Part shown: positions 28,458 to 63,702 of the stretch, piece by piece
Layout of the letters: every line of letters starts with the position of its first letter
Numbering within the stretch: the stretch's first letter is position 1
From: a virus
Lineage: Duplodnaviria; Caudoviricetes
Direction: 5' to 3' (one strand)
Length of the DNA stretch: 64,000 nucleotides
Virus record (IMG/VR): IMGVR_UViG_2833778570_000001
Location: 1-64,000 of that record
Made by a program: the position numbers and the translations under genes
Notes under the pieces: model-generated
What the model was told of the DNA's origin: nothing
Database searches by the model: none
Seen by the model: only the letters and a program-made list of their open reading frames with translations

Positions 28458-28997
28458 TTACGCTGTCACACCGACTGCCCTCTCTTTCCCGACGCCGAGC
28501 AGCCAGTCACGAAAGGCGGGCCAGGAGTTCTCGGTGATGAGCCCTCGCACGAAGGCGTTCGCCTGCCACTCGCGGATGAGCCCCTCGCCGCGCTGGAGTA
28601 GCCAGGGCCTCTCGCGGGCGGTCCGCTGCTCCAGCATGTACTTCTCGAACTCGGCCACCGTCTCCTCGAAGGTGGCCAGCGGGTTGTAGACGAGCCAGTC
28701 GTAGCCCTTGTCCTTCGCGTAGAAGCGCTCGTCCTGGGCCGCCATCTCGACGGTGGAGTACTTCCCCCAGTCGTCGCTGCTACCCGGGGCCGCGCCCCCG
28801 GACTCCATTTGCAGCAACTCCTGCTCGAGCGCCGTCTTCTTCACCAGCGTGGCGGAGTTCACCTCGGCGGCTGCGCGCGACAGCGCGGCCGAGGCGTCCA
28901 ACTGCCCCTTGATGCGGGCGATCTCCAGCCGCAGGTCCCGCTTCCGGGCCTCGGCGGCGTTGATGGCGTAGACGTCGCTCTGCGTGAGGGCGGGCAT
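28458..28997 (-). CDS. Tail-fibre-associated hypothetical protein
   Basis: GGAG RBS right after the fibre gene; N-terminal coiled coil. Confidence 0.7.
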   Translation of the reverse strand: MPALTQSDVYAINAAEARKRDLRLEIARIKGQLDASAALSRAAAEVNSATLVKKTALEQELLQMESGGAAPGSSDDWGKYSTVEMAAQDERFYAKDKGYDWLVYNPLATFEETVAEFEKYMLEQRTARERPWLLQRGEGLIREWQANAFVRGLITENSWPAFRDWLLGVGKERAVGVTA

Positions 28998-29006
28998 GGC
29001 CGACTC

Positions 29007-31136
29007 CTAGATGGGCTGCTTGATGTTGTGGCTGAGGAGGCCCGCGGACTCGTAAGTGCGGGCCCCGTGCACGGTGAGCTTCACGACGGCGCCCTCCCCT
29101 TCCGGCGCCACGCGGCGGACCAAGCCCGGGCGCAGTCCCTCCAGCAGTTCGCCGGGACGCAATGCGCGCAGCTCCGTCCAGCCCGCGAAGCGCCGGTAGA
29201 CGAGGTGGTTGGGCGTTGCCACCAGGACACGGCCGTCGGTGAGCTCCACCCGCCAGCGCGCGGCGCGGTGGATGGAGGCGGCCACCACCTCGAATACGCC
29301 CACGCGGCGCGTGTCCTCGTGCTGGGTGAGGACGCGCATACCCGGGCGAAGGGACGCCGCTGGTACCTCCCGCCTGTCCTCCAGGGCAATGGGCGTCTCG
29401 GGCGCGACGCACGTGCCGCCCGTCCCGCCGGAGCCGCCTCCCTCGCCGCCCGAGGGCCCCCCGCCGAAAGGCGAGGCAGTGGACTTCGCGAAGTTGATGC
29501 CCACCCCGGCGTTGTAGACGGGCGAGAACCACATGGAGGCGCTCACGCCGTAGACGCCGTGCACCTCACAGAGGAGCGCGACGTACTCCCCCAGGTTCTG
29601 CCCCCAGAGTCCCGCGAGGGCCGCCGGGGACTGGAAGGTGTGGCTGATGGCGACGCGGTTGAGCGCGTTGCCCTCCACGGCCGAAGCGTACTTCCGGTCC
29701 GGCAGGGGGATGTAGCGCGTGCCCCGGTACGTGGCGCTGACGCTGCTGTAGTAGTCCACCTTGAGGTAGCGGAGCGCATCCAGGTTGTCGTCGATGCTGG
29801 AGGGCTGGATGAAGAAGTGGTGCACCAGCCAGGAGTGGACGATGGGCGTCGTGTACCGGAAGTAGTCCGTGCACTGGACGTCCAGCCTGTCGATGAGCGG
29901 TGCGCCTCCGCGCACGCCCGTGTTGTTGCTGCCCCGGTAGTGGACGCGCCCCGCGGCCGACGTGCCGTCCAGCGCCTGGTTCGCCCTGAAGAAGGGCGTG
30001 TCCAGGAGGTAGCTGCCGATTTGGACGTTTCCACCGGCCGCCTTGAAGGCGGTGCCCACGTTGTCCAGCTTCGCTCCGGCCACGGGCACGCCGTTGCCGT
30101 CCTCCGCATAGTTGGACGTCTGGAGGGTGTTGGCCACCAGCAGGTCGAACGTCACCATCTTCCGCATGGAGACGGCGTCCAGGTACACGGCCTTCCCCGT
30201 GTCGGAATTGGCGGCGTTGATCTCGAAGTACAGCTGGACGCCGGTGCACCCCGCCGGGCAGGTGCCCTTCACCTTCACGCGCTGGTACGAGGTGGTGAGC
30301 GTGACGAAGGTGCTCGTGGACTGGCCGCCATAGGCACCGCTGGCATCCTCCCAGAGGAGAATCAGGTTGGCGCCAGGCTGGGCGAGCGCGGCGGAGGACT
30401 TCACCCAGGCCTCCGCGTAGAAGGAGTCCCCCGCGGTGCATTTGATGCGTCCTCCCGGGGCAGCGCTTTGGAAGCCGCCGATGAAGTTGAGCCCCGTGAA
30501 TCCACCACCGCTGGGCACCACCAGCTTGCGGCACCGGCGCCCCTCCTTCGCGTTGACGGGCTCCTCCACCAACGCGTCGCCCTCGGGGGACTTCCCCTGC
30601 GCATCCGCCTCCGAGTAGCCGTTGGGCACCAGGTTGTCCGTGGGCGGCAGCAGCAGGTGGGTGAAGCTGATGGCCGCCGTCGCCACCGCGGCACTGGTGA
30701 CGGAGCTGGCCGACATGTGCCTGGCGTAGACGCTGCCGGTGGGGACGTTGGAGAGGTCCGCCACGGCCATGGTGACGGTGTCCGGGTCGGCCACCACGCC
30801 ACCACCGAGGACACGCCAGCTGCTCTGGCTACCGTTGGTGTAGAGGGCCTGGACGGCGCACTGAACCTCCGTCTGCAGCGTCAGCTTCAGCGGCGCCACC
30901 CACCGCCTTTCCGAGGGGCCGAACTTCCGCGGCTCCAGCAGGTAGCTGTCGGTGTTGTTGGGGTCGCTGCCCTCGTAAACCACTACCTGGAAGCCCGAGA
31001 GGAGGTGCGCGGGGAGCACCTCGTCGTGCGTCCAGCGAATGTCCAGGTAGCGCGACTTGATGAGCTGCGGAGAGCGGACGCCGTCCACCTCGCGGTCGTA
31101 GATGCCGGCCGCTTCCTCCTGCTCGCGCGAGCGCAT
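29007..31136 (-). CDS. Tail fibre / receptor-binding protein with a C-terminal Hint domain
   Basis: FN3-like start, carbohydrate-binding-like beta sandwich, Gly linker, Hint motifs C1, TPNH, SHN. Confidence 0.8.
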   Translation of the reverse strand: MRSREQEEAAGIYDREVDGVRSPQLIKSRYLDIRWTHDEVLPAHLLSGFQVVVYEGSDPNNTDSYLLEPRKFGPSERRWVAPLKLTLQTEVQCAVQALYTNGSQSSWRVLGGGVVADPDTVTMAVADLSNVPTGSVYARHMSASSVTSAAVATAAISFTHLLLPPTDNLVPNGYSEADAQGKSPEGDALVEEPVNAKEGRRCRKLVVPSGGGFTGLNFIGGFQSAAPGGRIKCTAGDSFYAEAWVKSSAALAQPGANLILLWEDASGAYGGQSTSTFVTLTTSYQRVKVKGTCPAGCTGVQLYFEINAANSDTGKAVYLDAVSMRKMVTFDLLVANTLQTSNYAEDGNGVPVAGAKLDNVGTAFKAAGGNVQIGSYLLDTPFFRANQALDGTSAAGRVHYRGSNNTGVRGGAPLIDRLDVQCTDYFRYTTPIVHSWLVHHFFIQPSSIDDNLDALRYLKVDYYSSVSATYRGTRYIPLPDRKYASAVEGNALNRVAISHTFQSPAALAGLWGQNLGEYVALLCEVHGVYGVSASMWFSPVYNAGVGINFAKSTASPFGGGPSGGEGGGSGGTGGTCVAPETPIALEDRREVPAASLRPGMRVLTQHEDTRRVGVFEVVAASIHRAARWRVELTDGRVLVATPNHLVYRRFAGWTELRALRPGELLEGLRPGLVRRVAPEGEGAVVKLTVHGARTYESAGLLSHNIKQPI

Positions 31137-31146
31137 GCCCTCCCGT

Positions 31147-33627
31147 TTAGGGAGGCGGCGTGGACGAAATCCCCAGCGTGAGGGTGGCCGGCACCGTGGG
31201 CACGGACACCACCAGGGCGCTCGCCGCGCCGGTGCTGTAGTTGCCCGAGGTGTCGATGGCCTTCACGTGCACCAGGTGGTTGACGCCCGGCGGCGGCAGT
31301 GCCCACTCGTAGGTGGTGGCGCGCACCTTGCCGATGAGGGTGCCTGCCTCCCAGCTGGCGCCGTAGCGCAGCTCGTAGGTGTCCCTGTCCAGGTCCGGCA
31401 CCTCCGCCCAGCGCAGCGTCGCGGTGCTGCCGTTGAGGGCACAGGTGAGGCCCGTCACGTCGGAGGGCGGCGCAGCCTTGCCCACGACGGTGTAGCTGGC
31501 CGAGGCGTAGGTGGTGACGAGGCCGTTGAGGACGGCGGCCACCTGCACGGTGTACGCGCCCGGCAGGCAGTCCAGCAACTCCCAGTAGTGCGTCTGCACC
31601 GGCGTCTCCAACGTCCAGTTGCCGCCCTCGCGCTGCCAGCGCACCCGGTACTCGGTGGCGGTGGCCACCTGCGTCCACCGGGCCGTCGCCATGACTTTCA
31701 CGCCGCCATTCGTCGTCTTGTACAGCGACTCGCCCACCGCAAGGCCTGCGGGTGGCGCAGACAAAGGCAGCACGGACGTAGGCAGCGGCTGCAGCTTCAC
31801 TCCGTACTCCACCTCCGCGTACTTCCCCGGCTCGTGGCGCAGGGCGGTGATTTCGTAGAGGTGCGGCTCCACCTCCGCCACGTTGAGGATGCGCCAGAGG
31901 GTGGGCGTCAAGTCGGACGCGGCCAGCACCCAGACGGCCTGGGGCTGGGGCGCGGCAGAGAAGGGCGTGGCCACGGTGAGGGCGCGGTAGGGCGCCGGTG
32001 CGAGCGCGGCCAGCGGGCGCTCCTCCACGGTGCCATCCGGTAGCACTGCGGAGAGGGCGTACGTCTTCCCGGCTTCCAGGGTGACGTCCGCGTCGAACTC
32101 CACCTGGCTGGCGGTGGCAGCCACCACGCGCCCGCCCCACCGGCGTCCGGCCCGGTACGGGTCCTGGAGCTTCACCACGGCGCCGGGGTTGCGCATGGCG
32201 CCCTCGAAGCCGGTGCGGAACGTCACCGTCTCCGTCTCCAGCCTCTCGGTGAGGAGGAGCCACCGGCCCACGCGCTGCGCCTGGCCCCGGGAAGTACAGC
32301 CGAGCGCCACCACCTCGGTGGGGTTGTAGCCGTAGGTGGCGAGGCCCTCCTCGTCGGTGACGTACTCCTGCGCCGCCTTGAAGTGGTTGTCCGGGTCATT
32401 CCACGTCACCAGCGCGACGGTGTGCCGCGCGCGCTTCCCGCTGGAGGCGTAGGTGAAGAGGCCGTCCACCACGTTGGCCGGCGTGAAGAGGTACTCGGCG
32501 TCGCGCGGCGCGTCCTGGGCGACGAAGACGGCGCCGGAGGCCCAGTACGTCATGCCTCTGAAAACGGACGCGAGGTTGTTGATGACCTTGTACGCGTCCT
32601 CCTGCGTCTGGAGGTAGAGGTTGCAGCGGAAGCGCGGCTCCGTGCCGCCCTTCCCGTCCGGCACCAGCTCGTCGCAGTACTTCGCCACCGTGTAGAGGCC
32701 CCATTTGTCCACCGCGGCCTCGTTGAGGTAGCGGCCCAGGCCGTAGCGCTTCGTCGTGAGGAGGTCGTAGAAGCACCAAGCCGGGTTGTCCGTCCAGGCC
32801 ACCTTCCACGTGCCGTCCCAGGTGCCCTCGTACGTCCGGGCCACGGGGCTGTAGTTGCTGGGCACGCGCACCCGCAGCCCGCGAATCCGGTAGCTGCGCG
32901 TGGGGATGTTGCTGAACTGGCTGGCCGCCACCTGCAGCGCGCACAGCGCGGTGTTGGGGAAGCTGAGCTTCTCGTCCAGCAGCGTCGCGTAGGACTTCCA
33001 GATGACCTTGTTCTGCGTCGTCACGCTGTCCGCGTCCTCGCTGACGCGCGTGACGCGGATGTCCCAGGGCGGAGAGCCCGTCAGCTCCACGCGAAAGGTG
33101 CGCTCGTAGGGGCTGGTGCACTTCCCCCGGAAGAGTTCGGCGTCCTGGAAGGACTGCACCACGTACCCGCCCCCGTTGCTCTGCACAGCGATGGAGACGA
33201 GGACGCGGGTGGGCTTCAAGTCGCCCGTCGTGGGGTCCTGGTAGGTGAGCTGGGGCACCTGGAGGGTGACGCGCACGGCGTCCACCTCCGGGTCCGACAC
33301 CGTGCGCACCACCGGCGTGGCGCGCTTCACCTCGACGCCCACGGAGTGCTCCGCCTCGCCGGAGGGGAAGCCTGGGATGTACTCCTGCGACTGGGTGCCC
33401 TTCACGTCGTACACGGTGACGCCCGTGAAGTTGAAAGTGCCGTCGGGATTCTGGATGGCGACGCCGTCCAGGTAGACGGACTTCAGCCCGTCCACGAGGC
33501 CCTGAATCTCCCCCTCGCATAGCAAGTCCACCACGCGCGCCTTGGAGCTGGACTTCAGTGTGTTGGGAGACTCGACAGGGGTGCGCTGAGCGCCGCCCTC
33601 CCCTTTTCCGCCGCTGCTGCCGCCCAT
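31147..33627 (-). CDS. Host-specificity / central tail protein J (lambda gpJ-like)
   Basis: DLLCEGEIQGL, WTDNPAWCFYDLL, EPRFRCN, FN3 repeats. Confidence 0.92.
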   Translation of the reverse strand: MGGSSGGKGEGGAQRTPVESPNTLKSSSKARVVDLLCEGEIQGLVDGLKSVYLDGVAIQNPDGTFNFTGVTVYDVKGTQSQEYIPGFPSGEAEHSVGVEVKRATPVVRTVSDPEVDAVRVTLQVPQLTYQDPTTGDLKPTRVLVSIAVQSNGGGYVVQSFQDAELFRGKCTSPYERTFRVELTGSPPWDIRVTRVSEDADSVTTQNKVIWKSYATLLDEKLSFPNTALCALQVAASQFSNIPTRSYRIRGLRVRVPSNYSPVARTYEGTWDGTWKVAWTDNPAWCFYDLLTTKRYGLGRYLNEAAVDKWGLYTVAKYCDELVPDGKGGTEPRFRCNLYLQTQEDAYKVINNLASVFRGMTYWASGAVFVAQDAPRDAEYLFTPANVVDGLFTYASSGKRARHTVALVTWNDPDNHFKAAQEYVTDEEGLATYGYNPTEVVALGCTSRGQAQRVGRWLLLTERLETETVTFRTGFEGAMRNPGAVVKLQDPYRAGRRWGGRVVAATASQVEFDADVTLEAGKTYALSAVLPDGTVEERPLAALAPAPYRALTVATPFSAAPQPQAVWVLAASDLTPTLWRILNVAEVEPHLYEITALRHEPGKYAEVEYGVKLQPLPTSVLPLSAPPAGLAVGESLYKTTNGGVKVMATARWTQVATATEYRVRWQREGGNWTLETPVQTHYWELLDCLPGAYTVQVAAVLNGLVTTYASASYTVVGKAAPPSDVTGLTCALNGSTATLRWAEVPDLDRDTYELRYGASWEAGTLIGKVRATTYEWALPPPGVNHLVHVKAIDTSGNYSTGAASALVVSVPTVPATLTLGISSTPPP

Positions 33628-33628
33628 G

Positions 33629-34687
33629 TCAGTCCACCACCGTCGGGTCCGCCTTCTTCACGTTGTGGCTGAGGAGGCCGTCGGAGACGTAGGTGTGCGC
33701 GCCGGCCACGGTGAGGCGCACCACGGGCCCGTGCTCGCCCCGCGTCACCTGGCGCACCACGCCCGGCCGCGTGCCCACCAGCCGCACGCCGGCCGAGAGG
33801 TGGCGCAGCTCCATCCAGGCGTCCTCCGTCCGCACGCGGTGGTTGCCGGTGGCCTCCAGGCGCCGACCGTCCTCCAGCTCCAGCAACCACCGCACGCCTT
33901 CGGCGGGCTCCGCAGCGGTGACGAGGAAGTCTCCCCACTCCAGCGTCTCCTCGTCCTGGGTGCGCACCAGCATGCCCACCTGGACTTCGCCCGCGGGCAC
34001 CTCGCGCCCGTCCGCCAGGAGAATCGGCACCCACGGCGCGGGGCACGTGCCGCCGCCCGCTGGGGTTCCGCCGGGCCCCGTCTGCCCGCTGCCACCACTG
34101 CCCCCGAAGCCGCCGTCGGACCACTCAGTGACGAAGCCGGCGGAGACGACGCAGCTGCCCACTTCCATCTCTCCGTAGCAGATGGGCACCGGGTGGCCCT
34201 GGGCGAGCGTGTTGACGGGGCCATTGAAGACGTAGCTGGGCTTGTTGGCGTCGTCCTCGTCGGGCCCGGTGGCGGTGGGCGGGGCGAAGAGGAGCTGCGA
34301 GACGCCGCCCACCACCAGGGAAATGCCCGCGGTGATGAGGGGCACGCCCGCGCCGTACCCGTAGACGGTGAGGACGGCGCCGGCGGCGATGAGCACCGCG
34401 CCCGCTACCACCTGGAACCAGCCGGACTTCGCCCCGGCCAGGGCCGGCATGAAGGTGAGGACACGCGCGCCGGTGGGCATGCCCAGGTCGTCCTCACCGA
34501 CGTCCCGCTTGCCCGCGAAGACGTGGTAGCCGGGCTCGCTGTTCTCGGCCAGGTAGCGGCGGAAGCCGTCGCAGACGGCGGAGAGGGCCCGCACCGCCTC
34601 CGCAGGCGAGGGCACGGAGAGGTCCAGCTTCCACACGCGCCCGAAGCGCTTCCCCAGGGGCCCGCCCAGGACGATGGTCGTCAGCAT
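33629..34687 (-). CDS. Tail assembly protein I (lambda gpI-like) fused to a C-terminal Hint domain
   Basis: TIVLGGPLGKRFGR, SPAEAVRAL, GAKSG, FNGPVNT...PICYGE; then Hint. Confidence 0.9.
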   Translation of the reverse strand: MLTTIVLGGPLGKRFGRVWKLDLSVPSPAEAVRALSAVCDGFRRYLAENSEPGYHVFAGKRDVGEDDLGMPTGARVLTFMPALAGAKSGWFQVVAGAVLIAAGAVLTVYGYGAGVPLITAGISLVVGGVSQLLFAPPTATGPDEDDANKPSYVFNGPVNTLAQGHPVPICYGEMEVGSCVVSAGFVTEWSDGGFGGSGGSGQTGPGGTPAGGGTCPAPWVPILLADGREVPAGEVQVGMLVRTQDEETLEWGDFLVTAAEPAEGVRWLLELEDGRRLEATGNHRVRTEDAWMELRHLSAGVRLVGTRPGVVRQVTRGEHGPVVRLTVAGAHTYVSDGLLSHNVKKADPTVVD

Positions 34688-35412
34688 CGGGAAGCGTGCC
34701 TCACGACGCGTTGGGTGATGCGCTCCCAGAAGCCGGAGTACGTCTCCCGGCCGGACAGGCGCCCCATGACGTGGTGCAGGAGGACGTCCCCGCCCAGGTA
34801 CACGCCTGCGTGGTTGGGCACCGGGGCGCGCAGTTGCATGAGGAGGACGTCGTGCTCGCGCGGGGCTTTGCCCGTCACGTCCACGAAGCCCGCGCGGCCG
34901 AAGCCCTCCAGGTAGAGGTTGCCGCCCTTCGCCCACCAGTCGTCCGGGCGCTCGAAGTCGGGCAGCGCCAGGCCCAGGCGCTCCCAGTAGTAGTCCTGGA
35001 TGAGGGAGTAGCAGTCGAGGACGCCATGGCTGAAGGTGCGGCCCACCAGCGGCGGGCGGTAGCCGTCCGGGAAGTAGAGGCGCCAGTGCCCCACCGGGAC
35101 GTTGAGGATGAGCCAGGGCAGGCCCCAGCGCTCCATCATCACCCTGTCGGCCTCACTCGGTTCCGGCGCGGCGTTGGGGTGGGAGTGCACCACCGCCACC
35201 ACCTCGCCCTCCCCTTCTGCCTGAGCGTAGTCCTCCGGAGCTAGGACGAAGTGCGCCTGGCCGGCGGCGAGGTTCCGGCAGGGGCGGTACCGCTGGGCGC
35301 CGTCCACCAGCACCACGAGGCCGCAGGACTCGCGGGGGTAATCGGCCTGGGCGTGGGTGAGCGCGGCGCTCAGGACGTCATCAGCCAGCGTCAGCCGGCA
35401 GGGGTCGCTCAT
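34681..35412 (-). CDS. Tail assembly protein K (JAB + NlpC/P60)
   Basis: YPRESCG, HSHP...PSEAD, DCYSL, NHAGVY. Confidence 0.92.
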   Translation of the reverse strand: MSDPCRLTLADDVLSAALTHAQADYPRESCGLVVLVDGAQRYRPCRNLAAGQAHFVLAPEDYAQAEGEGEVVAVVHSHPNAAPEPSEADRVMMERWGLPWLILNVPVGHWRLYFPDGYRPPLVGRTFSHGVLDCYSLIQDYYWERLGLALPDFERPDDWWAKGGNLYLEGFGRAGFVDVTGKAPREHDVLLMQLRAPVPNHAGVYLGGDVLLHHVMGRLSGRETYSGFWERITQRVVRHASRC

Positions 35413-35545
35413 GCAGACATCGTGGCCACGAGCGTGGACGGCATCCATCTCAGACCGGACACAGAGGGGCTGTTCGGCCTGCATTCGGAAGCACCTAAAT
35501 CCGCCCAAATTGAGGCCACGGTCCTAACGGCGCTACATTCCAACA

Positions 35546-36280
35546 ATGACCTGGCAGCAATATGAACGAGCCATTCTGGAGAAGTTCTGGCGCGAGTTTC
35601 AGCCACCTCACTTCCGCGTGGAGCCATCAGGGGGAAACAGGCATTATTATACCGGTCGCCATTCAGGTGAGCTGAGACAACTGGATGTAGCAGTCTACCG
35701 ACGAGACGCGACTGCTCCGTTCTTGGTGGTTGACGCAAAGCATTGGCAGAACACTCTCGACATCAGCGACGTCGAGTCGTTCATAAGCTTCGTGGACGAT
35801 GTCGGAGCCACCCAGGGCGTGCTTGTTGCGAGTTCTGGTTTCTCTGAAGCTTCACCCCGCCGAGCGGCAGGAGCACCTGTGCCGATTCATTTGGAGATCG
35901 TCACGGCGAAGGAGGCATTGGAGTTGGATTGGCTCTGGCTGGGGCGAAAGCTCTTCCCGCAGGATTGGGCCTACCACCGTCATTTGGGCCATGCACTTCG
36001 CCTTATTGAAGGCAGCGGATCCGCAGCAGCGATTTCAGATGCGGTGGAAGGGGTTCCATTTGAGGAATGGGAGGCGGCCGTCAGCTTCGCGATCAACCAA
36101 CACCGCAGAGAAGCGCAGCATTTTCTCATTTGGGTAGCGACAAAGCACGACGACAGTGGATGGAGGTTCAATGCCGCCCGCCATCTCGCAGAAATCGGAC
36201 TGCTTACTGAATCCATCCGAAGCCAAGTCGTCGCCCTTGAAACGGACCCAACGGCATGCGCGATACTTGATGAAATGTAG
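35546..36280 (+). CDS. Mrr-like PD-(D/E)xK restriction endonuclease domain protein (moron)
   Basis: WQQYE, RQLDV, VDAKHW, GVLVASSGFS. Confidence 0.8.
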   Translation: MTWQQYERAILEKFWREFQPPHFRVEPSGGNRHYYTGRHSGELRQLDVAVYRRDATAPFLVVDAKHWQNTLDISDVESFISFVDDVGATQGVLVASSGFSEASPRRAAGAPVPIHLEIVTAKEALELDWLWLGRKLFPQDWAYHRHLGHALRLIEGSGSAAAISDAVEGVPFEEWEAAVSFAINQHRREAQHFLIWVATKHDDSGWRFNAARHLAEIGLLTESIRSQVVALETDPTACAILDEM

Positions 36281-36500
36281 AAATCACACAGCAGCTATCC
36301 GCTGAACCGTCCAAGGTAGGCCCTTTCCATCCACCAACCGAACGGCCACCGCCGTCCGCGCCAGCCATTCACTTGCACTGGCTTGCCTCGGCAAAGAGTC
36401 CCGGGACCTCCCGGAGCGTCGCCATGCCTTTGTAGGAGGCCGAAGGGGAGAGCCCAGAAGACGGCTCCATGCGTCGTACGTCTACTCCGGGAGCTCGTAC

Positions 36501-37763
36501 CTGAGCCATCCCCTCATATGAAACCGAGCGCTTCTTTGAAGACAGGGTGCTGATGGAGGAGTTCGGCGAAGCGCTCGACGAGAGGCCGCAATCGCTCCTC
36601 CTTCATCATGGGAATGGCTTGGTAATACATGCAGCCCTGCCGGAAGAGCGAGTAGGTGCGTGTCTTGACGGTATTGGCCTTCAAGCCCTTCTCCATCCCG
36701 AGACTCTCCCCCGCGGCGCCCAGCAGCGTCAGCAGCACCTGGGCCAGGGCGCTCACCAGCAGCAGCCTGTCTCTGCGCTCGGGACTCTTCACGCGCACCG
36801 TGGACAGTCCCATCCCGAATCTCAAGTCCTTGACGTCCCGGAACGTCTCCTCGCACGAGAAACGCCGGGCGTAGAGGTCCACCACCTGGCGCGCGCTGGC
36901 GGCTCCCAGGCTGGTGGCCAGACACCACGGCTCCTTCATGCCCTTCTGGCGCACCAGCACCACCGCGGGCACCGGCGTGCGGTCCGCCGTCACGTGCACG
37001 TCCGTCAGCTTCTTGGCGTGCCCGCTGGTGGGAATCCACCTGGCCGCGGGACACCCGGTGCCGCCGGCCACCTCCACCCGCACGTCCTTGCGAAAGCGCA
37101 CCACGTACTCGAAGCCCGCCTGGGCCAAAAGGGCGTACAACCGCTGGTCCGCGAAGCCCCGGTCCGCCAGCACCGTCACCTTCACCCCTTCGGGCACGCA
37201 CTCCTTGAGCCGCAGCAGCAGCTCATCCTCCGCCTGGGCGCGGTTGCCCGCCAGCGCGCTCTTCTGCAGCGTCAGCCACAGCAGGGGCGTGGTGCGTCCA
37301 TGCGAGGTGACGAGGCTGGCCACCAGGGTGGTGTGGTCATCGGCCTCGAAGTCCGTCCAGTCCAGCGCCACCAGCGCTTCGGTGCGCTCGGCCAGCACGT
37401 ACGGCACCCACGAGGCCGCCAGCTTCCACACGTCCACCGCCTCGTTGGACAGCAGTCGGTCCACCTGCTTGATGCCGTGCTTCTCACGCCGCCTCGCGCC
37501 CACGCCAGCGCCTGGCCAATGGCGTGCACCGACAGCGACGCGGCGTGCACCACCCCCAACGTCGCGTGCGCCAGCGACAGCACCCTCTTGGCGTGCAGGT
37601 CCTCCTCGAACAAGCTCTCCAGGAACCTCAGCACCTGCTCTTCGTTGATGGCCACCTTGCGTCCCAGCATGGCCTCTCTTCCTGCTCCCCACCACTCCGC
37701 CTCGCACGGGCCTGGCAGGCAGGCGGCTGGCGATCAGCTTGCCGAAATGAGGGGATCTCTCAG
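36501..37763 (-). mobile_element. IS4-family insertion sequence (1263 bp)
   Basis: 17-bp TIRs CTGAG(CC/AG)ATCCCCTCAT; 9-bp target duplication AGCTCGTAC at 36492 and 37764. Confidence 0.92.
36514..37670 (-). pseudogene. IS4 DDE transposase with a 1-nt frameshift near 37490
   Basis: N-terminal part MLGRKV...WARGG and main part EKHGIKQVD...ALDWTD...LADRGF...YARRFSCEETFRDVK are in different frames. Confidence 0.85.
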
Positions 37764-38962
37764 AGCTCGTACAGCAGGGTGTCGAGCAGTGCGATCCGAC
37801 ATCTCCAGACCCGCGCCTCAACCGGCACCAGTGGACGTGAAGCGGCAAACCAGGGAAAGGACCAAAGGGTGTCGAGGAACTTGACGTAGGTGGTCGCGCT
37901 GGTCGGGACAGTTCCGAAGACCTGCCAGAGACGCCTTCGGTTGGCGTTGTTGACCGAGAGGAAGACGTCCGGCCGTTTCATGGCGAGAAGGCGGGTGGCA
38001 GCTCCCAACCCAACACCCCTCAGAGCAAGAACTCCGTCGAGGTAGGCCTCAACCACGTCGTGCGACACACGCCCCCTGACTGGAACAGCATCCAAGAAGC
38101 GCCCCAACTGCTTGGGAGAGTCGGTGGTGAGCTGCTTGAAGTAGCCCGCCCCTTGCATTCGCCCAAAGTAGCCGGTGGTGTCCCGCCCCCATCCAGCCAC
38201 CAGCTTGCGCTCATCTTCTGGCATTGAAGCGAACGCTGGCCAACGATGGAACGCTTCCCGACAGGCTTCGGCCTCCCCTAGATAAGAGCCGTCCGGGTGA
38301 TCGAAAACGCGAATCTCAAAACCGTTAGCCAGAGCCCGCCTCTCCTGACGAGCGATGAGGGCATAATATCCCGCCCAGTCGCAACTTAGGTCTCCCAGGC
38401 ACACTGCGGCGTTAGCAGGCAAAGGCTGGGGCGCCTTCTTTATTGGAGGCTTAGGCCTGCTTTCATACAATTCATGATATGCGGCCAACCATGCCGCGCT
38501 TGGCGTGAATGCACGCGGGTCGTGCCAAGCTGCATCCACAAACGAAAGCAGGGTGCCCGCAGCATTGCACTGAGCATCTCCCTCAAAAAGGACGTTCAGT
38601 TCCGTGTTCCCATGAAAGCCTCCCCGGGTGAAGTTCGAAGATCCCCAGAGAGCACGCACCTGCCCTCCGCGTCGTCCGACAAGCAACTTCGGATGGAAGA
38701 CACCAGAGGTGTCCTCAATGACACGAAGGACTTTAGCATTGCCAAGTTCGACCAGAACCTGGGGCTCGGTCTGAGCGAAGTGGATCCCGATAACGGCCCG
38801 GCGGACACGCTCAAGGGGTAGGCACTTCCAATGCTCTGCTGTTCCTCCAGCCGAGCTAGCCCACGCGTAAACCAAGTCAATATCCGAGGCCCAAGCCACA
38901 AGCCTGCGAAGCGCATCCATCGTATCTGCTGTAGATGCCAAGACCGTGAAATTCTCTGCCAT
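37760..38962 (-). CDS. Phospholipase D (HKD) family nuclease, NgoFVII/BfiI-like
   Basis: FHPKLLV...WGSSNFTRGG...NTELN, long C-terminal domain; lower GC. Confidence 0.8.
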   Translation of the reverse strand: MAENFTVLASTADTMDALRRLVAWASDIDLVYAWASSAGGTAEHWKCLPLERVRRAVIGIHFAQTEPQVLVELGNAKVLRVIEDTSGVFHPKLLVGRRGGQVRALWGSSNFTRGGFHGNTELNVLFEGDAQCNAAGTLLSFVDAAWHDPRAFTPSAAWLAAYHELYESRPKPPIKKAPQPLPANAAVCLGDLSCDWAGYYALIARQERRALANGFEIRVFDHPDGSYLGEAEACREAFHRWPAFASMPEDERKLVAGWGRDTTGYFGRMQGAGYFKQLTTDSPKQLGRFLDAVPVRGRVSHDVVEAYLDGVLALRGVGLGAATRLLAMKRPDVFLSVNNANRRRLWQVFGTVPTSATTYVKFLDTLWSFPWFAASRPLVPVEARVWRCRIALLDTLLYEL

Positions 38963-39218
38963 ACAATTGGCCTCCAGGCCAAAGAGCGTCGCAGAAAATG
39001 AGACATCCAACCCAGATGCCCCACCGCGTCTACCGCCGTTGCGTCACCAATGCCGACCAAATGACCATTATGCTGTTGGGAAAAATAGCAGTGCTCCCAG
39101 AGCCCCAGAACTGTGTGGACATGACTTTGGCGGCTCACACCATAGGTCATATTATCCAGAGAGGTACCGGTCTACTTCAACGACCGACCAGTAGACTTCC
39201 GCGAAGAAGAAGTCGCTC

Positions 39219-40127
39219 TCAGATGACCTCAAACGCAGGTTCTGCGTTCTCTGTGACACGAGTCGCCAGCACGCTTTTCCGCCGCAAGGGGTCCGCCTTC
39301 GACCGGTCCTTCGCGCTCTTCTGGACGAGGTCGGCGCGGTGAATCACCTCGCTCGCCTGAGCCTTCACATCCTTCACGGCCACGAGGCCACACGAGGATG
39401 ACAGGTGACGAGGTTCCCCTTTCACTTTGACCGTTTCCCCTGAGAGCGATGCCAGCGCTGCACCCATGCGCCTCTGAGCCTGTTCCAGTGGCGTTGCTGG
39501 CATAACAACGACGACCTCGTCACCGCCCTTCCGGTAGGCGTCCCCAACATCGGACACGGCCTTCTCGATGGCATGGAAGAAGGCCTTGATGGCTTCGTCC
39601 CCCGTTGCATGGTCGCCGTCTTCGTTGAACGCCTTGAGCCCGTTCATGTCGAGGTAGGCCACCGACACCGGCGACTCCTCCTGGATGTTCATGATGGCAA
39701 TCGCCAAGTCGCGCTCCGCATGGCGACCGTCATAAAGGATTCCAAACGGTTCATGCAGACGAGTGGAACGAAGCTGGTCCTGCAGCTCCGCCAACCGGAG
39801 ACGGCCCAAGTGCCCCAGTTCCAACTCTACACTCTGGCCATCTAGGAGCCTTGAGACAAACTCCGCGCGACCGAGTCGCTCCCTCCGCTCAAGTTCCTCT
39901 GCAACCGCGTCGAGGCCGCCACTGCCTGGCACGTAAAGGCTCTTCCTGATGTCGGGGCCATTGATCATCCCCCTAAAGAAGAGGGAGAGGACCATCTGTA
40001 CTTCCTTTGCAGCCTCGAATGATCCCCCTCCCCCTCTCGGGAATTGCCTACTGACCCACCGAGTCTGCTCGAACCGGGCAAGAAATTGTAATTCCAGGAA
40101 GCGAGCATCATTTTTGTACTCTGCCAT
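39219..40127 (-). CDS. GGDEF-domain diguanylate cyclase-like protein
   Basis: YLDMNGLKAFNE...HATGDEAI...YRKGGDEV...SCGL...ADL. Confidence 0.85.
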   Translation of the reverse strand: MAEYKNDARFLELQFLARFEQTRWVSRQFPRGGGGSFEAAKEVQMVLSLFFRGMINGPDIRKSLYVPGSGGLDAVAEELERRERLGRAEFVSRLLDGQSVELELGHLGRLRLAELQDQLRSTRLHEPFGILYDGRHAERDLAIAIMNIQEESPVSVAYLDMNGLKAFNEDGDHATGDEAIKAFFHAIEKAVSDVGDAYRKGGDEVVVVMPATPLEQAQRRMGAALASLSGETVKVKGEPRHLSSSCGLVAVKDVKAQASEVIHRADLVQKSAKDRSKADPLRRKSVLATRVTENAEPAFEVI

Positions 40128-40260: not shown

Positions 40261-40956
40261 TCAGCGGATGAGTCCCACTGCCGGGAACCCTCCGTACGGC
40301 AGGACGGCAGCGACTCCGAAGCGCAGCTTGCAACTGGCGAGGCGCTTCCCGCACCGGTCCTCTATGGCGCTGGACGTAGGCGTGTCGTTCACCTTCGCCA
40401 CTGGCGGCCCCGCGTAGCCGCAGCCCTCGCCGCGGTACTCCCAGGGGCACAGCTGCGTGATGATGCGCAAGGGGATGCGGACGCCATCCAGGTCGCACTT
40501 CGCAGCCAGGCTGAACTCGATGACGTGCTTGTTCTCCACCGTCTTCTGGTCCACCACGAACTCGTCGTCCGGGAAGGCGTCCAGCGGCGAGGCGGTGGGG
40601 TTGATGCCTCCGGGGAAGTTCACCGCATCCAGGTAGCGGACGAAGGTGCGCTTCCGCAGGACGCGCGCGCCCAGCAGATCGTTCAGGTCCCTCGCCATGG
40701 CGCCGATGGTGCCGGCGACGTTGGCGAGCGTCAGGGTGGGCCGGGGTAGCCGCCCCATGCCGGACTTGTCGAAGCCCTTCACCTGGATAGCCCAGGGCTC
40801 GTACGCCATGCCCTGCCAGACGACGGGCCCGCGGAGGCCGTTGGTGCCCGCGTGGAAGTGGCTGACGCCCCCGCCAGGCAGGTTGGTGGCGTCCAGGACG
40901 AAGAGCTCCACGAGGGCCCCTGCGTCCAGCCTTTGGATGTCGCTGGCGATGCTCAC
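40261..40956 (-). CDS. Minor tail protein L (lambda gpL-like)
   Basis: ALVELFVLD, PRPTLTLAN, RKRTFVRYLD, Cys motif C..C.W.YRG..C...C...C. Confidence 0.93.
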   Translation of the reverse strand: MSIASDIQRLDAGALVELFVLDATNLPGGGVSHFHAGTNGLRGPVVWQGMAYEPWAIQVKGFDKSGMGRLPRPTLTLANVAGTIGAMARDLNDLLGARVLRKRTFVRYLDAVNFPGGINPTASPLDAFPDDEFVVDQKTVENKHVIEFSLAAKCDLDGVRIPLRIITQLCPWEYRGEGCGYAGPPVAKVNDTPTSSAIEDRCGKRLASCKLRFGVAAVLPYGGFPAVGLIR

Positions 40957-41540
40957 CCTGCCTCCTCCTGGAACGTCGCGGTGAAGTCGTAGGCGTTGAA
41001 GCCCTTCGCGGTGCGGTGCCACTCCTCGCACACGACGTGCGCCGCCAGCTCGCCCGCGCCGGTGAAGGTGAGCGCGGCCCCGGTGGCTGGCGCCACAGCG
41101 AAGGTGACGAGCCCCGAGGCGGAGAGCACGTAGGCGGTCCCCGCCACCTGGGCGACGCCCGCGACGTAGATGGTCGGCGGCGCCGTCCAGTTCGTGGCCG
41201 GCACCAGCAGCTCCGGCGTCTCCGGGGACAGCGGTCGCCGCAGGAGCCACTGCGTCCGGGCCCCGTCCCCCGCCCCGAAGGGCTGCACGGCGACGGACCA
41301 GGCCGTGTCCGGGGTGACGAACTCGAAGGGCTCGACGCCCGCGCGTGCGCGCAGGAAGGCCTCCAGGGCGTCCGCGTTTAACTTCGCGAGGTTAGAGAAC
41401 TGGAGGGCCCAGCGCCGCAGGACGGGGTTGAGGCCGTCCCCTGAGCGCTGCGAATAGCCGTCGCCGAACTGCGCCCTGCGCACGCGCGGCGCCGCGTCCG
41501 CCTGGGCGCCATAGTCGGGGGTGAAGGGGAAGCGCTCCAT
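40953..41540 (-). CDS. Minor tail protein M (gpM-like) with an internal insertion
   Basis: QFGDGYSQR...GLN, AFL...PFEF, FTATFQE. Confidence 0.88.
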   Translation of the reverse strand: MERFPFTPDYGAQADAAPRVRRAQFGDGYSQRSGDGLNPVLRRWALQFSNLAKLNADALEAFLRARAGVEPFEFVTPDTAWSVAVQPFGAGDGARTQWLLRRPLSPETPELLVPATNWTAPPTIYVAGVAQVAGTAYVLSASGLVTFAVAPATGAALTFTGAGELAAHVVCEEWHRTAKGFNAYDFTATFQEEAG

Positions 41541-41853: not shown

Positions 41854-42645
41854 ATGCCTTCGAAGCACTTCCTGACTGCTTGCTCAGTTCTCACGCTCTT
41901 GGTCGCACTCCCCACGACTCCGGCACTGGCTGAGCCGTGGTATGGGGATTCCCCCGATCTGGCCTTGCGGAGCTGCCAGCATCTCTATGCCATGGGCGTC
42001 CGGCGCTCAGGCGTCTACTTTCTCAAGCCCGATGGCACGCAGGCCCTCACTACGTACTGCGACATGGAGACGCAAGGGGGAGGGTGGGCGATGGTCTACA
42101 ACAGCGTGCTCGGCACCAACACAACCGACTTCTGGAACATCCCCTATGCGGAGCGCCTGGGCCGCCGCGGCCGACCCAGCTTGGATTCCAACTTCTATGA
42201 GGGCAGCCTCTATCTCTACCGCAAGACAGAGTTCACAGATGCTGTCAGGTATATGGATGTCGTCGAGGATCTTCGAGGCAAGACTGCCATCCTTTTCACG
42301 GCCCGGACTGATGGGTTCAATTCCAGCACGATGAGGTTCCATGGGCCCCAGCAACTTGGTGGTAGTCTTGCTGTCTACGACAGGCAGTTTTCTTCGGGAT
42401 GGGCGTCTCCGGATTACGATGGCGATGCTACTTCTCTGGCGCAGTGTTCGCTCAATTACGCGAATGTCACGCAGCATTACTCTGGCTGCTGGGCATATAA
42501 TCTCGGTGCCGATGCCGAAGCCCCAATTGAGGATGGCAGGGTTGGACCTCATTTGAATAGCTCCGTGGCGGTTGAACTCGGGCTTGTAACCGACGGCACG
42601 CAGCACACGCGTGTCCGCCGCATTACGCGCTTCGTGAGGTGGTAG
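41854..42645 (+). CDS. Secreted fibrinogen-C / intelectin-like domain protein (moron)
   Basis: Signal peptide; SC...SGVY...YCDM...GGGW. Confidence 0.8.
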   Translation: MPSKHFLTACSVLTLLVALPTTPALAEPWYGDSPDLALRSCQHLYAMGVRRSGVYFLKPDGTQALTTYCDMETQGGGWAMVYNSVLGTNTTDFWNIPYAERLGRRGRPSLDSNFYEGSLYLYRKTEFTDAVRYMDVVEDLRGKTAILFTARTDGFNSSTMRFHGPQQLGGSLAVYDRQFSSGWASPDYDGDATSLAQCSLNYANVTQHYSGCWAYNLGADAEAPIEDGRVGPHLNSSVAVELGLVTDGTQHTRVRRITRFVRW

Positions 42646-42705
42646 TGCCAACGTAGGGCTCTCGTCAGACGGACGGAGCCCGGCTGTACGCGGCGGGCCA
42701 CGCTG

Positions 42706-43087
42706 GTGGCGGATGCGCGGGCGGGCGCGAAGCTGCTCTTCCGCGCGTCGCTGCTGGCCGCGGGCACGAGCCGCGAGGAGGCCTTCCTCGCCGAGGCGCT
42801 GGAGCGCGACGCGACCTTCGCGCCCGCGCGAATCCGCCGGGGCGAGCTGCGGCTGACCACGGATGCCCGCGCCGCGCTGGAGGACTTTGAGGCGGTGCTG
42901 GCCCTGTCGCCCGCGGACGTGGATGCGCCGCGAGGCGGAGCGCGTGGCCCTTACGCGCAAGGCCGCCACCGCCGTCGTGCGCGCAAGCCGCACGGACGCC
43001 GCCCGGCGGCTGCTCGCGGAGTTCTGCGCGCGCACGCCGGAGGATCTGGACGCGCGGCTGGAACTGGCCGGGCTGCACCGCAGGTAG
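42706..43087 (+). pseudogene. TPR-repeat gene remnant
   Basis: AALEDFEAVLALSP and PEDLDARLELA in different frames; no good start. Confidence 0.55.
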
Positions 43088-43092
43088 CCGTC

Positions 43093-43338
43093 GCCGCGGG
43101 GCTGTCGCGGGTGCTGAGCGACGTGCCGGTGCGGACCGGCTACCTGGAGGCCCAGGTGGGCGCGTCCTCCCTCACGGGCGCATACGCGCGCCTGGAGGGC
43201 GGGGCGCGGCTCCGGCAGAACCTGGGCATCTTCGGCTTTGCGGAGGGCAACGCCCGCGAGCGGATGGCTGGCATGGGCATCCGGTACACGTTCGGCTCGC
43301 AGTACAGCAGCCCGCTCCGAAGCATTGGGGCGAGCTGC
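43093..43338 (+). repeat. Inverted diverged copy of 24386-24631 (end of lysis module plus terminator)
   Basis: Long identical runs; stop codon and hairpin degenerate in this copy. Confidence 0.9.
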
Positions 43339-43404
43339 TGCCCTCACCAAGCAAGCAGTGTCCTCGCAGAAAATCACCAAGAACAAACTGCGAGAATTTG
43401 GCAC

Positions 43405-63414: not shown

Positions 63415-63459
63415 CCTCGCAGCGTCACCTGCGGCGTGGACAGGGTCCGGCGTTGGTCC

Positions 63460-63702
63460 TCATGGACCTGGCTGCGGCGGCTCCATCCCGGAACAGGCCG
63501 AGAGCCTCTTCGACCCGGCATAGGCGAGCCCGGGGAAGCGCTCCAGGACGGCGCTGTGGTGCACCCCTTCGCGGAGCAGCTCCAGCGCCTTCGCCCGCTG
63601 CTGGCGCCGGAGCCGCGCGGGCGTCAGCCCCTCCGGCCGGTCCGGACCGAGGTCTCGCGGATCCGGTCCCTCGTCCCACAATGGTTTGCGGCAGCAGGCC
63701 AT
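63460..63702 (-). CDS. Small HTH-like protein
   Basis: ALELLREGVHHSAVLERFPGL; GAGGGG RBS. Confidence 0.5.
   Translation of the reverse strand: MACCRKPLWDEGPDPRDLGPDRPEGLTPARLRRQQRAKALELLREGVHHSAVLERFPGLAYAGSKRLSACSGMEPPQPGP

Follow-up and report, generated by a model that had tools for sequence, protein, structure and literature searches.

A BIL-like Hint domain with a predicted self-excising role at the C-terminus of a myxobacterial prophage tail fibre

The distal tail fibre encoded by a myxobacterial prophage ends in a Hint domain that is judged, on balance, to be a self-excising module of the BIL type whose short C-terminal tail probably rejoins the fibre. This reading brings together the fold, the catalytic residues, a flank signature shared across the family, linkage to the fibre-tip domain, and purifying selection, all of which were observed here. 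The prophage was analysed in a window of 64,000 nucleotides (the whole stretch of DNA under study), in which the fibre gene starts 10 nt past the stop codon of the gpJ homologue (Table 1); the fibre has homologues that bear the name "Hint domain-containing protein" in Corallococcus, Myxococcus, and Pyxidicoccus.

Table 1. Positions of the fibre gene, its parts, and its neighbours, in window coordinates.
Feature	Position	Strand	Basis or remark
Distal tail fibre / receptor-binding protein gene P0001, 709 aa	29007..31136	-	ORF and translation
Fibre N-terminus, ~180 aa, presumed gpJ anchor	30597..31136	-	Identity with L021:12931-14835
Fibre-tip domain, aa 371-560	29457..30026	-	jackhmmer; alignments A6, A7; AF2 model
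Gly-rich linker, aa 558-575, ending Gly-Gly-Thr575 (-1 residue)	29412..29465	-	Translation
Hint (BIL-like) domain, aa 576-704	29025..29411	-	Sequence, family profile, fold
Hint catalytic codons	Cys576 29409-29411; block-B His644 29205-29207; His703-Asn704 29025-29030	-	
5-aa tail Ile-Lys-Gln-Pro-Ile	29010..29024; Lys706 (+2) 29019-29021; stop 29007-29009	-	Translation
179-aa gene directly downstream of the fibre	28458..28997	-	Conserved neighbour of many Hint-capped fibres
gpJ homologue	31147..33627	-	NCBIfam lambda_TipJ 1.5e-149; Pfam FNIII-A_GpJ, Phage-tail_3
gpI homologue with its own C-terminal Hint	33629..34687	-	PHROG 32 tail assembly protein, 2e-54
gpI Hint residues	Cys 34043-34045; Asn 33662-33664	-	
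gpK homologue (JAB + NlpC/P60)	34681..35508	-	Pfam Prok-JAB, NlpC/P60; PHROG 30

The C-terminus of the fibre contains every sequence element that a preceding sequence-only reading had described, in the order GGSGGTGGT, Cys576, a 129-residue Hint domain extending to Asn704 (...GLLSHN), IKQPI, and the stop codon. At the other end, residues 1–183 share 53% identity with the Hint-less fibre of Myxococcus sp. Y35 (L021:12931-14835), the remainder of which is unrelated to the window fibre; the N-terminal ~180 residues are presumed to anchor the fibre to gpJ. The gpJ homologue itself spans positions 2–716 of the 1163 of lambda TipJ and is devoid of the distal fibre/receptor-binding part of the lambda protein. 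The fibre-tip domain, marked by the motifs YRG-N, GGAP-I, DNLD-R, DR-Y, and NAYG-S, was recovered by jackhmmer in 79 of ~180 fetched proteins and is the usual upstream partner of the Hint family; its AF2 model (pLDDT 83) is an FN3/Ig-like sandwich that returned generic FN3/Ig-like matches only among known structures (Foldseek E of at least 1e-3; VIA Z of at most 8.5), so that the tip cannot be assigned to any particular receptor-binding fold. A sequence search of the fibre body against the PDB gave no meaningful match, and tblastn searches of the INPHARED cultured phages gave no match to the fibre-tip domain and a single weak one to Hint (MT835519, 33%, E 4e-5). The 179-aa product of the downstream gene, which has no Pfam, PHROG, or NCBIfam match, has homologues whose genes immediately follow that of the fibre in 21 locus entries, which represent ~11 separate places (L013, L016, and L040 among them).

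The fibre's C-terminal domain is a real Hint domain, as established by the comparison of the family profile with the PDB, by the fold, and by the conserved Cys1, block-B His644, and His703-Asn704. The family profile matches the NpuDnaB intein (4o1r, 6e-15) and the BIL domain 2lwy (2e-11); the AF2 model (pLDDT 92, pTM 0.85) adopts the Hint fold, and its top Foldseek match is Tetrahymena BUBL1 BIL2 (6tmm, 6y75; 8e-11, TM ~0.8), with further matches to the Ssp and Npu DnaB mini-inteins and Cth BIL 2lwy, and with a probability of 1.00 and TM of 0.75–0.83 across BIL2, the DnaB, gp41-1, and RecA inteins, 2lwy, and Hedgehog. Pfam searches of both Hint copies in the window gave matches to Vint, Hint, and Intein_splicing, all sub-threshold, and PT-HINT (PF07591) gave no match to the window copy even at E up to 10. 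Among relatives, PT-HINT is the Pfam model most often matched (32 of 123 at E <1e-3, best 7e-11), and two individual family members scored 25.7 and 30.8 bits against it, the gathering cut-off being 27.7 bits.

The lack of an endonuclease insert, likewise anticipated from the sequence, is borne out, the fibre domain being a continuous 129-aa mini-Hint. Its +1 residue is Ile705, so that the Cys, Ser, or Thr nucleophile of a canonical (class 1) intein is missing; the canonical mobile intein was rejected as a class on account of this residue, the lack of an endonuclease, and a C-extein of 5 aa. Several features of BIL type A are present, namely a Hint domain, a C-terminal His-Asn, no +1 nucleophile, and tail-tip and fibre carriers with swapped distal parts, and the fibre domain is best read as a BIL type A-like module placed between a poly-Gly linker and a 5-residue tail. 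A Pfam search of P0001 for Peptidase_S74 (E up to 0.1) gave no match, and the sterol- or adduct-recognition region of Hog is not present after Hint, where 5 residues follow Asn704.

By homology with inteins and BIL domains, the chemical steps of excision can be predicted, as can the absence of Hint from virions. In the folded domain, Cys576 would attack the carbonyl of Thr575 in an N-S acyl shift, with help from His644, to form a thioester; Asn704 would cyclise with help from His703, thereby freeing the IKQPI tail, and Hint would depart to leave a mature fibre without it. With Ile at +1, canonical trans-esterification is impossible; the tail would likely be rejoined to the fibre end through aminolysis of the thioester, with attack by one of two amines, the newly formed α-amine of Ile705 or the ε-amine of the near-invariant Lys706; the resulting fibre would end in poly-Gly and a short tail, as the natural Hint-less homologues do. 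For BIL2, attack on the thioester by the ε-amine of a C-flank Lys, giving an isopeptide, has been reported (PMC8616854). The conserved Lys could also serve catalysis or the function of the mature tail, and not act as the nucleophile.

The fallback outcome of these steps would be plain hydrolysis of the thioester, that is, cleavage only. As an explanation of the whole, this course is possible though doubtful: Hint would aid or mask the folding of the trimeric tip and leave by hydrolysis, and the tail would be discarded, having been only the leaving group of Asn cyclisation, which would make the domain an analogue of the S74 intramolecular chaperone. Such a role had been put forward in the sequence-only reading and is possible by analogy, since Hint lies where S74 domains lie, at the extreme C-terminus of the fibre behind a flexible linker, and caps 33 of 35 proteins with the tip domain; moreover, BIL domains without a +1 nucleophile yield mainly cleaved rather than spliced products (PMC7664689). 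However, cleavage alone explains neither the retention of a tail of at least four residues with a near-invariant Lys (not Arg) nor the poly-Gly and short tail of Hint-less homologues; two natural tips fold without Hint, and gpI, which is without Hint in 105 of 120 relatives, needs no such chaperone.

The residues that would carry out excision, and those around them, are shared by a family that comprises no fewer than 560 protein clusters and consists almost entirely of phage tail-tip proteins (gpJ-like hubs, gpI plugs, and distal fibres). Its signature consists of a Gly-linker, Cys-Pro/Val-Ala at the start of Hint, Ser-His-Asn at the end, and x-Lys in a tail of usually 4–6 residues. Cys1 is kept in 140 of 140 family copies, alignments A2 and A4 show no variation at the block-B His or the C-terminal His-Asn, and in the N-flank Gly is found at −2 in 98 and at −3 in 92 of the 140 copies. 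Every complete copy has at least two residues after the Asn, and usually 4–6; from these residues and the kept His-Asn, both Hint junctions look active. A Cys, Ser, or Thr occupies +1 in just 10 of 157 copies. Lys is found at +1 or +2 in 144 of the 157 and at +2 in 116, where Arg is found in 3, although the family proteins overall favour Arg (K/(K+R) = 0.38); the Lys and Arg counts at +2 treat related sequences as independent.

It is tentatively suggested that the Gly-linker, Hint, and x-Lys together form an ATP-independent ligation device used in virion assembly, in which the Lys or the α-amine would capture the fibre C-terminus. Mature tail-tip proteins would then possibly bear a ligated, and possibly isopeptide-branched, end, and the device would be a prokaryotic/viral counterpart of the "splicing-mediated conjugation" of ciliate BIL2. 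The opposite case, in which Hint is inactive and remains part of the mature fibre, serving as a knob for structure or binding, is in keeping with the fact that no processing has been observed for any family member; it is nevertheless extremely improbable, given that Cys1, the block-B His, and His-Asn are (near-)invariant over 560 clusters with typically 35–50% identity, and the retention of catalytic residues across clusters so divergent makes a degenerate binding domain unlikely.

When the fibre-tip domain alone was used as the query against viral and metagenome loci, Hint was found directly after it in 33 of 35 loci (24/26 viral, 9/9 metagenome), and all full-length homologues of the fibre body carry Hint; the random absence from close relatives that the sequence-only reading had named as the mark of a mobile intein is not apparent among these fibre relatives. 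The two Hint-less tip homologues end in ...GGGGGRGYYTP and ...GGGGGIRVN, that is, in poly-Gly and a tail of 4–6 aa in which +1 or +2 is basic, and their closest Hint-bearing relative has Hint exactly between linker and tail. Such ends resemble what the expected spliced product, or "empty site," would look like; they could also be relics of a recent deletion. Among gpI relatives Hint is patchy (15 of 120), and one of the 105 Hint-less gpI tails fits a "GG-x-K" empty site, so that gpI lends no support to this comparison.

These patterns also bear on the unlikely case that Hint is a selfish, endonuclease-less passenger resembling a mini-intein, with the same chemistry and no benefit to the phage, which would persist because imprecise loss damages the fibre end and would spread by recombination in the coding repeats for poly-Gly. 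An intact empty site in Hint-less homologues is what such a passenger would leave; its patchiness among gpI relatives, the poly-Gly and short tail at the end of many Hint-less gpI proteins, and the scattered placement, on the Hint tree, of copies borne by gpI (8 changes for 8 rows) fit as well. A passenger would, however, hardly be kept by 33 of the 35 tip proteins or co-diverge with the tip, the distances of which co-vary with those of Hint (Mantel r 0.78, p 0.001); it has no homing endonuclease, and, provided that the tail is dispensable, a simple stop codon at the C-terminus could suffice for its removal. Judging from dN/dS (0.13 versus 0.11–0.26), Hint and the fibre body are both subject to purifying selection, and such selection is compatible with selfish and beneficial readings alike and does not discriminate between them. 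The earlier proposal of selection rather than a parasitic intein thus stands in part: the domain is not a canonical intein, and its linkage to the tip and its dN/dS agree with selection, whereas the empty-site tips, the few gpI relatives with Hint, and gpI copies that do not form one group on the tree weigh the other way.

The gpI homologue in the window comprises a Ubl-like N-terminus (Lambda_tail_I), hydrophobic helices, and a C-terminal Hint domain from Cys298 to Asn425 of the printed ORF, after which a 10-aa tail starts with Val-Lys; its +1 residue is thus Val, not Cys, Ser, or Thr. BLASTP aligns the fibre and gpI Hints with 70 of 132 residues identical (53%, E 9e-37), which upholds the homology noted earlier; the similarity is far beyond chance, and the fibre Hint is an old paralogue of the gpI Hint. 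The junction DNA GGCGGCACGTGC, to which the sequence-only reading had drawn attention, is indeed common to both and belongs to the exact runs of at least 10 nt, of which there are only three. They coincide with conserved residues: the Gly-Gly-Thr-Cys junction and GLLSHN account for the two longest. With a DNA identity of 64% overall, the shared run is attributed to codon bias on conserved residues and not to recent exchange, and each window copy sits on the Hint tree among orthologues borne by the same kind of carrier; the idea that gene conversion had recently occurred between the two was rejected. A possible third provirus copy at 63445-63561 (39 aa, E 4.5e-4) lies in GC-rich sequence and was treated as spurious.

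In a stronger form of the ligation reading, the thioester would serve to attach the tip of the fibre to a different partner. The Gly-rich C-terminus would be handed over to a foreign acceptor, such as a Lys of gpJ or gpI or an amine or hydroxyl of the host surface, in the manner of Hedgehog-cholesterol and BIL2-Ubl. BIL2 conjugates ubl4 to several substrates (PMC8616854), the same chemistry would occur on two trimeric tail-tip proteins of one module, and the N-terminal domain of gpI is itself Ubl-like. Such a hand-over is very unlikely: no acceptor- or adduct-recognition region exists within the 5 residues past Hint, the candidate conserved nucleophile (Lys) lies in cis, and most capped phages have Hint on a single protein. 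In gpI, the Ubl is ~200 residues from Hint, behind membrane helices, so that the activated end is not that of the Ubl. The JAB and NlpC/P60 domains of gpK match general models and a tail-protein PHROG, with no specific tie to Hint. The same pair is found in lambda gpK, which also argues against a special tie of gpK to Hint, and the covalent link between fibre and gpI that had been envisaged from the sequence finds no support.

Rejoining of the tail after self-excision, the reading favoured here, would have consequences beyond this prophage. Literature searches combining Hint, BIL, or intein-like with tail fibre or phage returned terminase and replication inteins and the PT-HINT of polymorphic toxins, and no paper on a tail-tip cap. 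To our knowledge, the self-removing C-terminal modules of phage fibres described so far are S74 serine-lysine proteases; a different, thioester-based chemistry would here occupy an S74-like position on hundreds of tail-tip protein families. If Hint self-excises, the lengths annotated for fibres, and the receptor-binding tips predicted for them, are off by ~14 kDa per chain. If, in addition, the Lys-bearing tail is religated, the family would offer a natural nucleophile-free or isopeptide-forming splicing system, of interest to intein mechanism research and protein engineering.

Several known systems can be set beside the fibre Hint. The S74 domains of endosialidases and T5-type fibres are C-terminal, self-removing chaperones on trimeric fibres that work as Ser-Lys dyad proteases; position and presumed logic are the same, whereas fold and chemistry are unrelated. 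Hedgehog Hog (1at0, 6tyy; fold E ~2e-7) shares the Gly|Cys junction and a thioester that modifies the C-terminus of the released part, but lacks the step at a C-terminal His-Asn and depends on a sterol-recognition region located after Hint. Class 1 mini-inteins (Npu/Ssp DnaB, gp41-1, Mtu RecA) have the same fold and catalytic residues, and NpuDnaB is the best sequence-profile match of the family; they differ in having Cys, Ser, or Thr at +1, conserved sites in essential enzymes, and a large C-extein, compared with Ile and 5 residues in the fibre. BIL2, from the BUBL1 polyubiquitin-like locus of Tetrahymena thermophila, is the best structural match and a precedent for the conserved Lys; however, it is eukaryotic, shares 15% identity, and has ubiquitin-like flanks and a reported zinc switch, whereas the C-flank of the fibre Hint is a pentapeptide. 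Type A BIL domains (Amitai 2003 and Dassa 2004, as cited in PMC7765530), together with PT-HINT and represented by the Clostridium thermocellum (Cth) BIL 2lwy (TM 0.80–0.85 to the fibre Hint), have the same fold, Cys1, block-B His, and C-terminal His-Asn, no +1 nucleophile, a location within the variable parts of secreted or surface proteins, and an expectation of self-cleavage with some splicing. Unlike them, the fibre Hint lies at the extreme C-terminus with no toxin or cargo behind its tail of 4–6 aa, and its family is distinguished by a near-invariant +2 Lys, a poly-Gly N-flank, and phage tail-tip carriers.

The C-terminus of the 709-aa distal tail fibre consists of a Gly-rich linker (...GGSGGTGGT), Cys576 and a 129-aa domain extending to GLLSHN (Asn704), after which only IKQPI precedes the stop; the tail protein gpI terminates in a domain of the same type, followed by a 10-aa tail beginning Val-Lys. 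The sequence-only reading had described this arrangement, with a Hint domain homologous to that of gpI, and translation and alignment confirmed it in every particular (53% identity over 132 residues, E 9e-37). The shared junction DNA is likewise real, as a 12-nt exact run that is accompanied, among the exact runs of at least 10 nt, by an 18-nt run on GLLSHN; however, since these runs fall on the most conserved residues of a genome with strong codon bias, and overall DNA identity is 64%, they are no evidence of recent exchange. A tree built from 167 Hint copies places the window's gpI Hint beside that of Myxococcus eversor gpI (64% identity) and the fibre Hint with its own Corallococcus orthologues, although gpI copies overall are scattered and deep nodes unresolved; as each copy groups with orthologues on its own carrier, the two are old paralogues evolving with their carriers. 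Related prophages of Corallococcus and M. eversor (L004, L005, L019, L020) carry both caps, and the other phages sampled have one cap only.

Pfam matches of the window copies do not reach the threshold (Vint 8e-4, Hint 0.013, Intein_splicing 0.085), yet the assignment as a Hint domain is settled by profile and predicted structure. A 38-member family profile matches the NpuDnaB mini-intein (6e-15), the BIL (bacterial-intein-like) domain 2lwy of Clostridium thermocellum (2e-11), 8w20 (an "intein C-terminal splicing domain" protein) and the gp41-1 intein. The AlphaFold2 model on the same alignment (mean pLDDT 92, pTM 0.85) is placed by Foldseek in the Hint fold at a TM of about 0.8, with BIL2 of Tetrahymena BUBL1, the Ssp and Npu DnaB mini-inteins, gp41-1, 2lwy and Hedgehog as top matches; across the family there is little or no variation at Cys1, at the block-B His (His644) and at the terminal His-Asn.

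The window belongs to a 78-kb provirus (IMG/VR) whose closest relatives lie in genomes of Corallococcus, Myxococcus and Pyxidicoccus, and its minus strand encodes a lambda-like tail module, as listed in the table. Because the gpJ homologue spans only part of lambda TipJ and the fibre ORF follows closely, the fibre takes the place of the distal fibre and receptor-binding part of lambda J. Upstream of its ATG, the fibre frame continues without a stop for about 115 nt, overlapping the gpJ 3' end in another frame (31137-31262). Four genes split the tail operon at the gpL-gpK junction. A tail-collar fibre gene and a 465-aa gene lie between tape measure and gpL (42007-44691, minus strand), a site at which fibre genes are unusual in a lambda-like module. 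The 179-aa gene downstream of the fibre has no match in Pfam, PHROG or NCBIfam; in 21 locus entries, or about 11 distinct places, its homologues immediately follow the gene of a Hint-capped fibre, including at the distant loci L013, L016 and L040, and they were not found behind the Hint-less fibres of loci L034 and L036. Its product may be a fibre assembly partner.

Tail module and neighbouring features in the window
Feature	Position	Strand	Remark
Tape measure	45082-48795	-	First in order of the tail module
Tail-collar fibre gene	43405-44691	-	Between tape measure and gpL
465-aa gene	42007-43404	-	Between tape measure and gpL; no family match
gpL	40261-41250	-	After tape measure
Inserted block	35546-40127		Between gpL and gpK; GGDEF, PLD-like, transposase and Mrr genes
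GGDEF cyclase	39219-40127		In gpL-gpK interruption
PLD-like protein	37760-39010		In gpL-gpK interruption
DDE transposase	36514-37848		In gpL-gpK interruption
Mrr-like nuclease	35546-36280	+	In gpL-gpK interruption
gpK	34681-35508	-	JAB + NlpC/P60
gpI	33629-34687	-	
gpJ homologue	31147-33627	-	Covers lambda TipJ positions 2-716 of 1163 (1.5e-149)
709-aa fibre ORF	29007-31136	-	10 nt after gpJ homologue
179-aa gene	28458-28997	-	Directly downstream of fibre

A mobile intein would be sporadic among relatives, and the fibre Hint is not. A query with fibre residues 1-560 returned 31 homologues, all with a Hint but for one frameshifted fragment and a 634-aa protein sharing the N-terminal 180 residues only. 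The latter is the fibre of the Myxococcus sp. Y35 prophage, whose gpI bears a Hint; this distal fibre is a different protein without tip domain (the roughly 190 residues before the linker) or Hint, and the two thus go together. When the tip domain was searched alone, without Hint in the query, 24 of 26 IMG/VR loci and 9/9 metagenome loci had a Hint immediately behind it. Tip and Hint co-vary in pairwise distance (Mantel r 0.78, p 0.001; r 0.41 for pairs whose tip distance is >0.5), and between close orthologues the dN/dS of the Hint, 0.13, resembles that of the fibre body, 0.11-0.26. In gpI the pattern is another: the closest myxobacterial relatives all carry the Hint, but of the 120 relatives listed only 15 do, with the Hint added behind a complete gpI body. 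Among the gpI relatives P0190-P0297, many Hint-less homologues end in a poly-Gly run and a 6-20-aa tail, and these may mark places that once had a Hint or could take one up; others end 7-8 residues past the conserved YGE..VGS..SAG motif. The earlier interpretation is partly supported: on the fibre the Hint is not sporadic, 33/35 tip loci carrying it, whereas in gpI the distribution is patchy.

An exhaustive HMMER search over 1.84 billion cluster representatives recovered 560 Hint clusters at E <=1e-3 and 148 at E <=1e-10, with the Hint nearly always at the extreme C-terminus of proteins of 130 to 2060 aa. Pfam content in 123 carriers identifies them as proteins of phage tail tips and fibres: the Hint part matches PT-HINT (32 members) or Intein_splicing (17), and the remainder Phage-tail_3 (21), FNIII-A_GpJ, Rcc01698_C, Mtd_N, Phage_Tail_Tip, PB4_spike, T7 tail fibre, Prophage_tail, carbohydrate-binding modules and collagen. 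Eight fetched proteins are gpI-like, the window's gpI included, and 79 share the 190-aa domain preceding the fibre Hint. In a well-supported clade of 24 members (P0034-P0119), the Hint is internal, with Gly linkers on both sides and 17-498 residues after it; six proteins (P0060, P0080, P0091, P0093, P0141, P0167) carry two tandem copies with short linkers. A terminase (Terminase_6C) of a Rhodoferax MAG (L022:488-2410) contains a true intein, 28% identical to the query, which is an ordinary enzyme-borne intein and a useful outgroup.

The flanks, counted over 157 Hint copies (140 for the N-flank), are stereotyped. Gly occupies -2 in 98/140 and -3 in 92/140 copies, at -1 stands Gly, Thr, Ser or Tyr, and position 1 is Cys in all 140, followed by Pro or Val and then Ala. 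Behind the terminal Asn, the +1 position holds a hydrophobic residue or Lys, with Cys, Ser or Thr in 10/157 copies only; +2 is Lys in 116 and Arg in 3, and Lys stands at +1 or +2 in 144. Tails measure 4-6 residues in 71 copies and at least 30 in 42. As Arg is commoner than Lys in the carriers overall (K/(K+R) = 0.38), this preference does not reflect charge alone; the nominal binomial p of 1e-44 is illustrative only, the copies being related. Most telling are the two Hint-less tip proteins (L034, L036), which extend past the tip domain with a poly-Gly run and 4-6 residues (...GGGGGRGYYTP and ...GGGGGIRVN); in L039, the closest of their relatives to carry a Hint, tip end and poly-Gly are the same and are followed by the Hint and finally by VKALIT. 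The native end of the fibre family would therefore be poly-Gly plus a short tail in which a basic residue comes early, and the Hint, read against these ends, lies exactly between the two, like an intein between exteins.

By homology, Thr575 would be joined to the Hint as a thioester through the action of Cys576 and His644, and His703-Asn704 would cleave the tail through succinimide formation; with Ile at +1, canonical trans-esterification is impossible. Dassa et al., in 2004, reportedly described some BIL splicing through a freed alpha-amine. Where BIL domains lack a nucleophile at +1, cleaved products predominate (PMC7664689), and cleavage only, with the tail not rejoined, is the main alternative. 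That His-Asn is invariant, that a tail is always kept and that Lys, not Arg, stands at +1, +2 or +3 would suit a tail with an active part in the reaction better than one that only leaves, and self-excision with probable religation of the tail is therefore favoured; religation would restore the layout of the Hint-less proteins. In lambda, gpI forms a trimer that serves as a structural plug of the tail tip, its C-terminal strands threading through gpJ (PMC11101478), and a 14-kDa appendage on such a plug, or on a trimeric fibre tip, would plausibly need removal. For gpK, the JAB-NlpC protein, the matching models are the general Prok-JAB and NlpC/P60 ones and a tail-protein PHROG; its presence is no evidence for a conjugation/deconjugation cycle.

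In the literature, no paper was found on phage tail-tip proteins capped at the C-terminus by a Hint domain, or on the Gly / Hint / x-Lys signature, and NCBI labels such proteins only as "Hint domain-containing protein". The fold and predicted chemistry belong to the known BIL/intein kind. BIL2, the best structural match of the fibre Hint, has been reported to splice through a C-flank lysine with an isopeptide product (PMC8616854), a precedent for the conserved Lys of the fibre tail.
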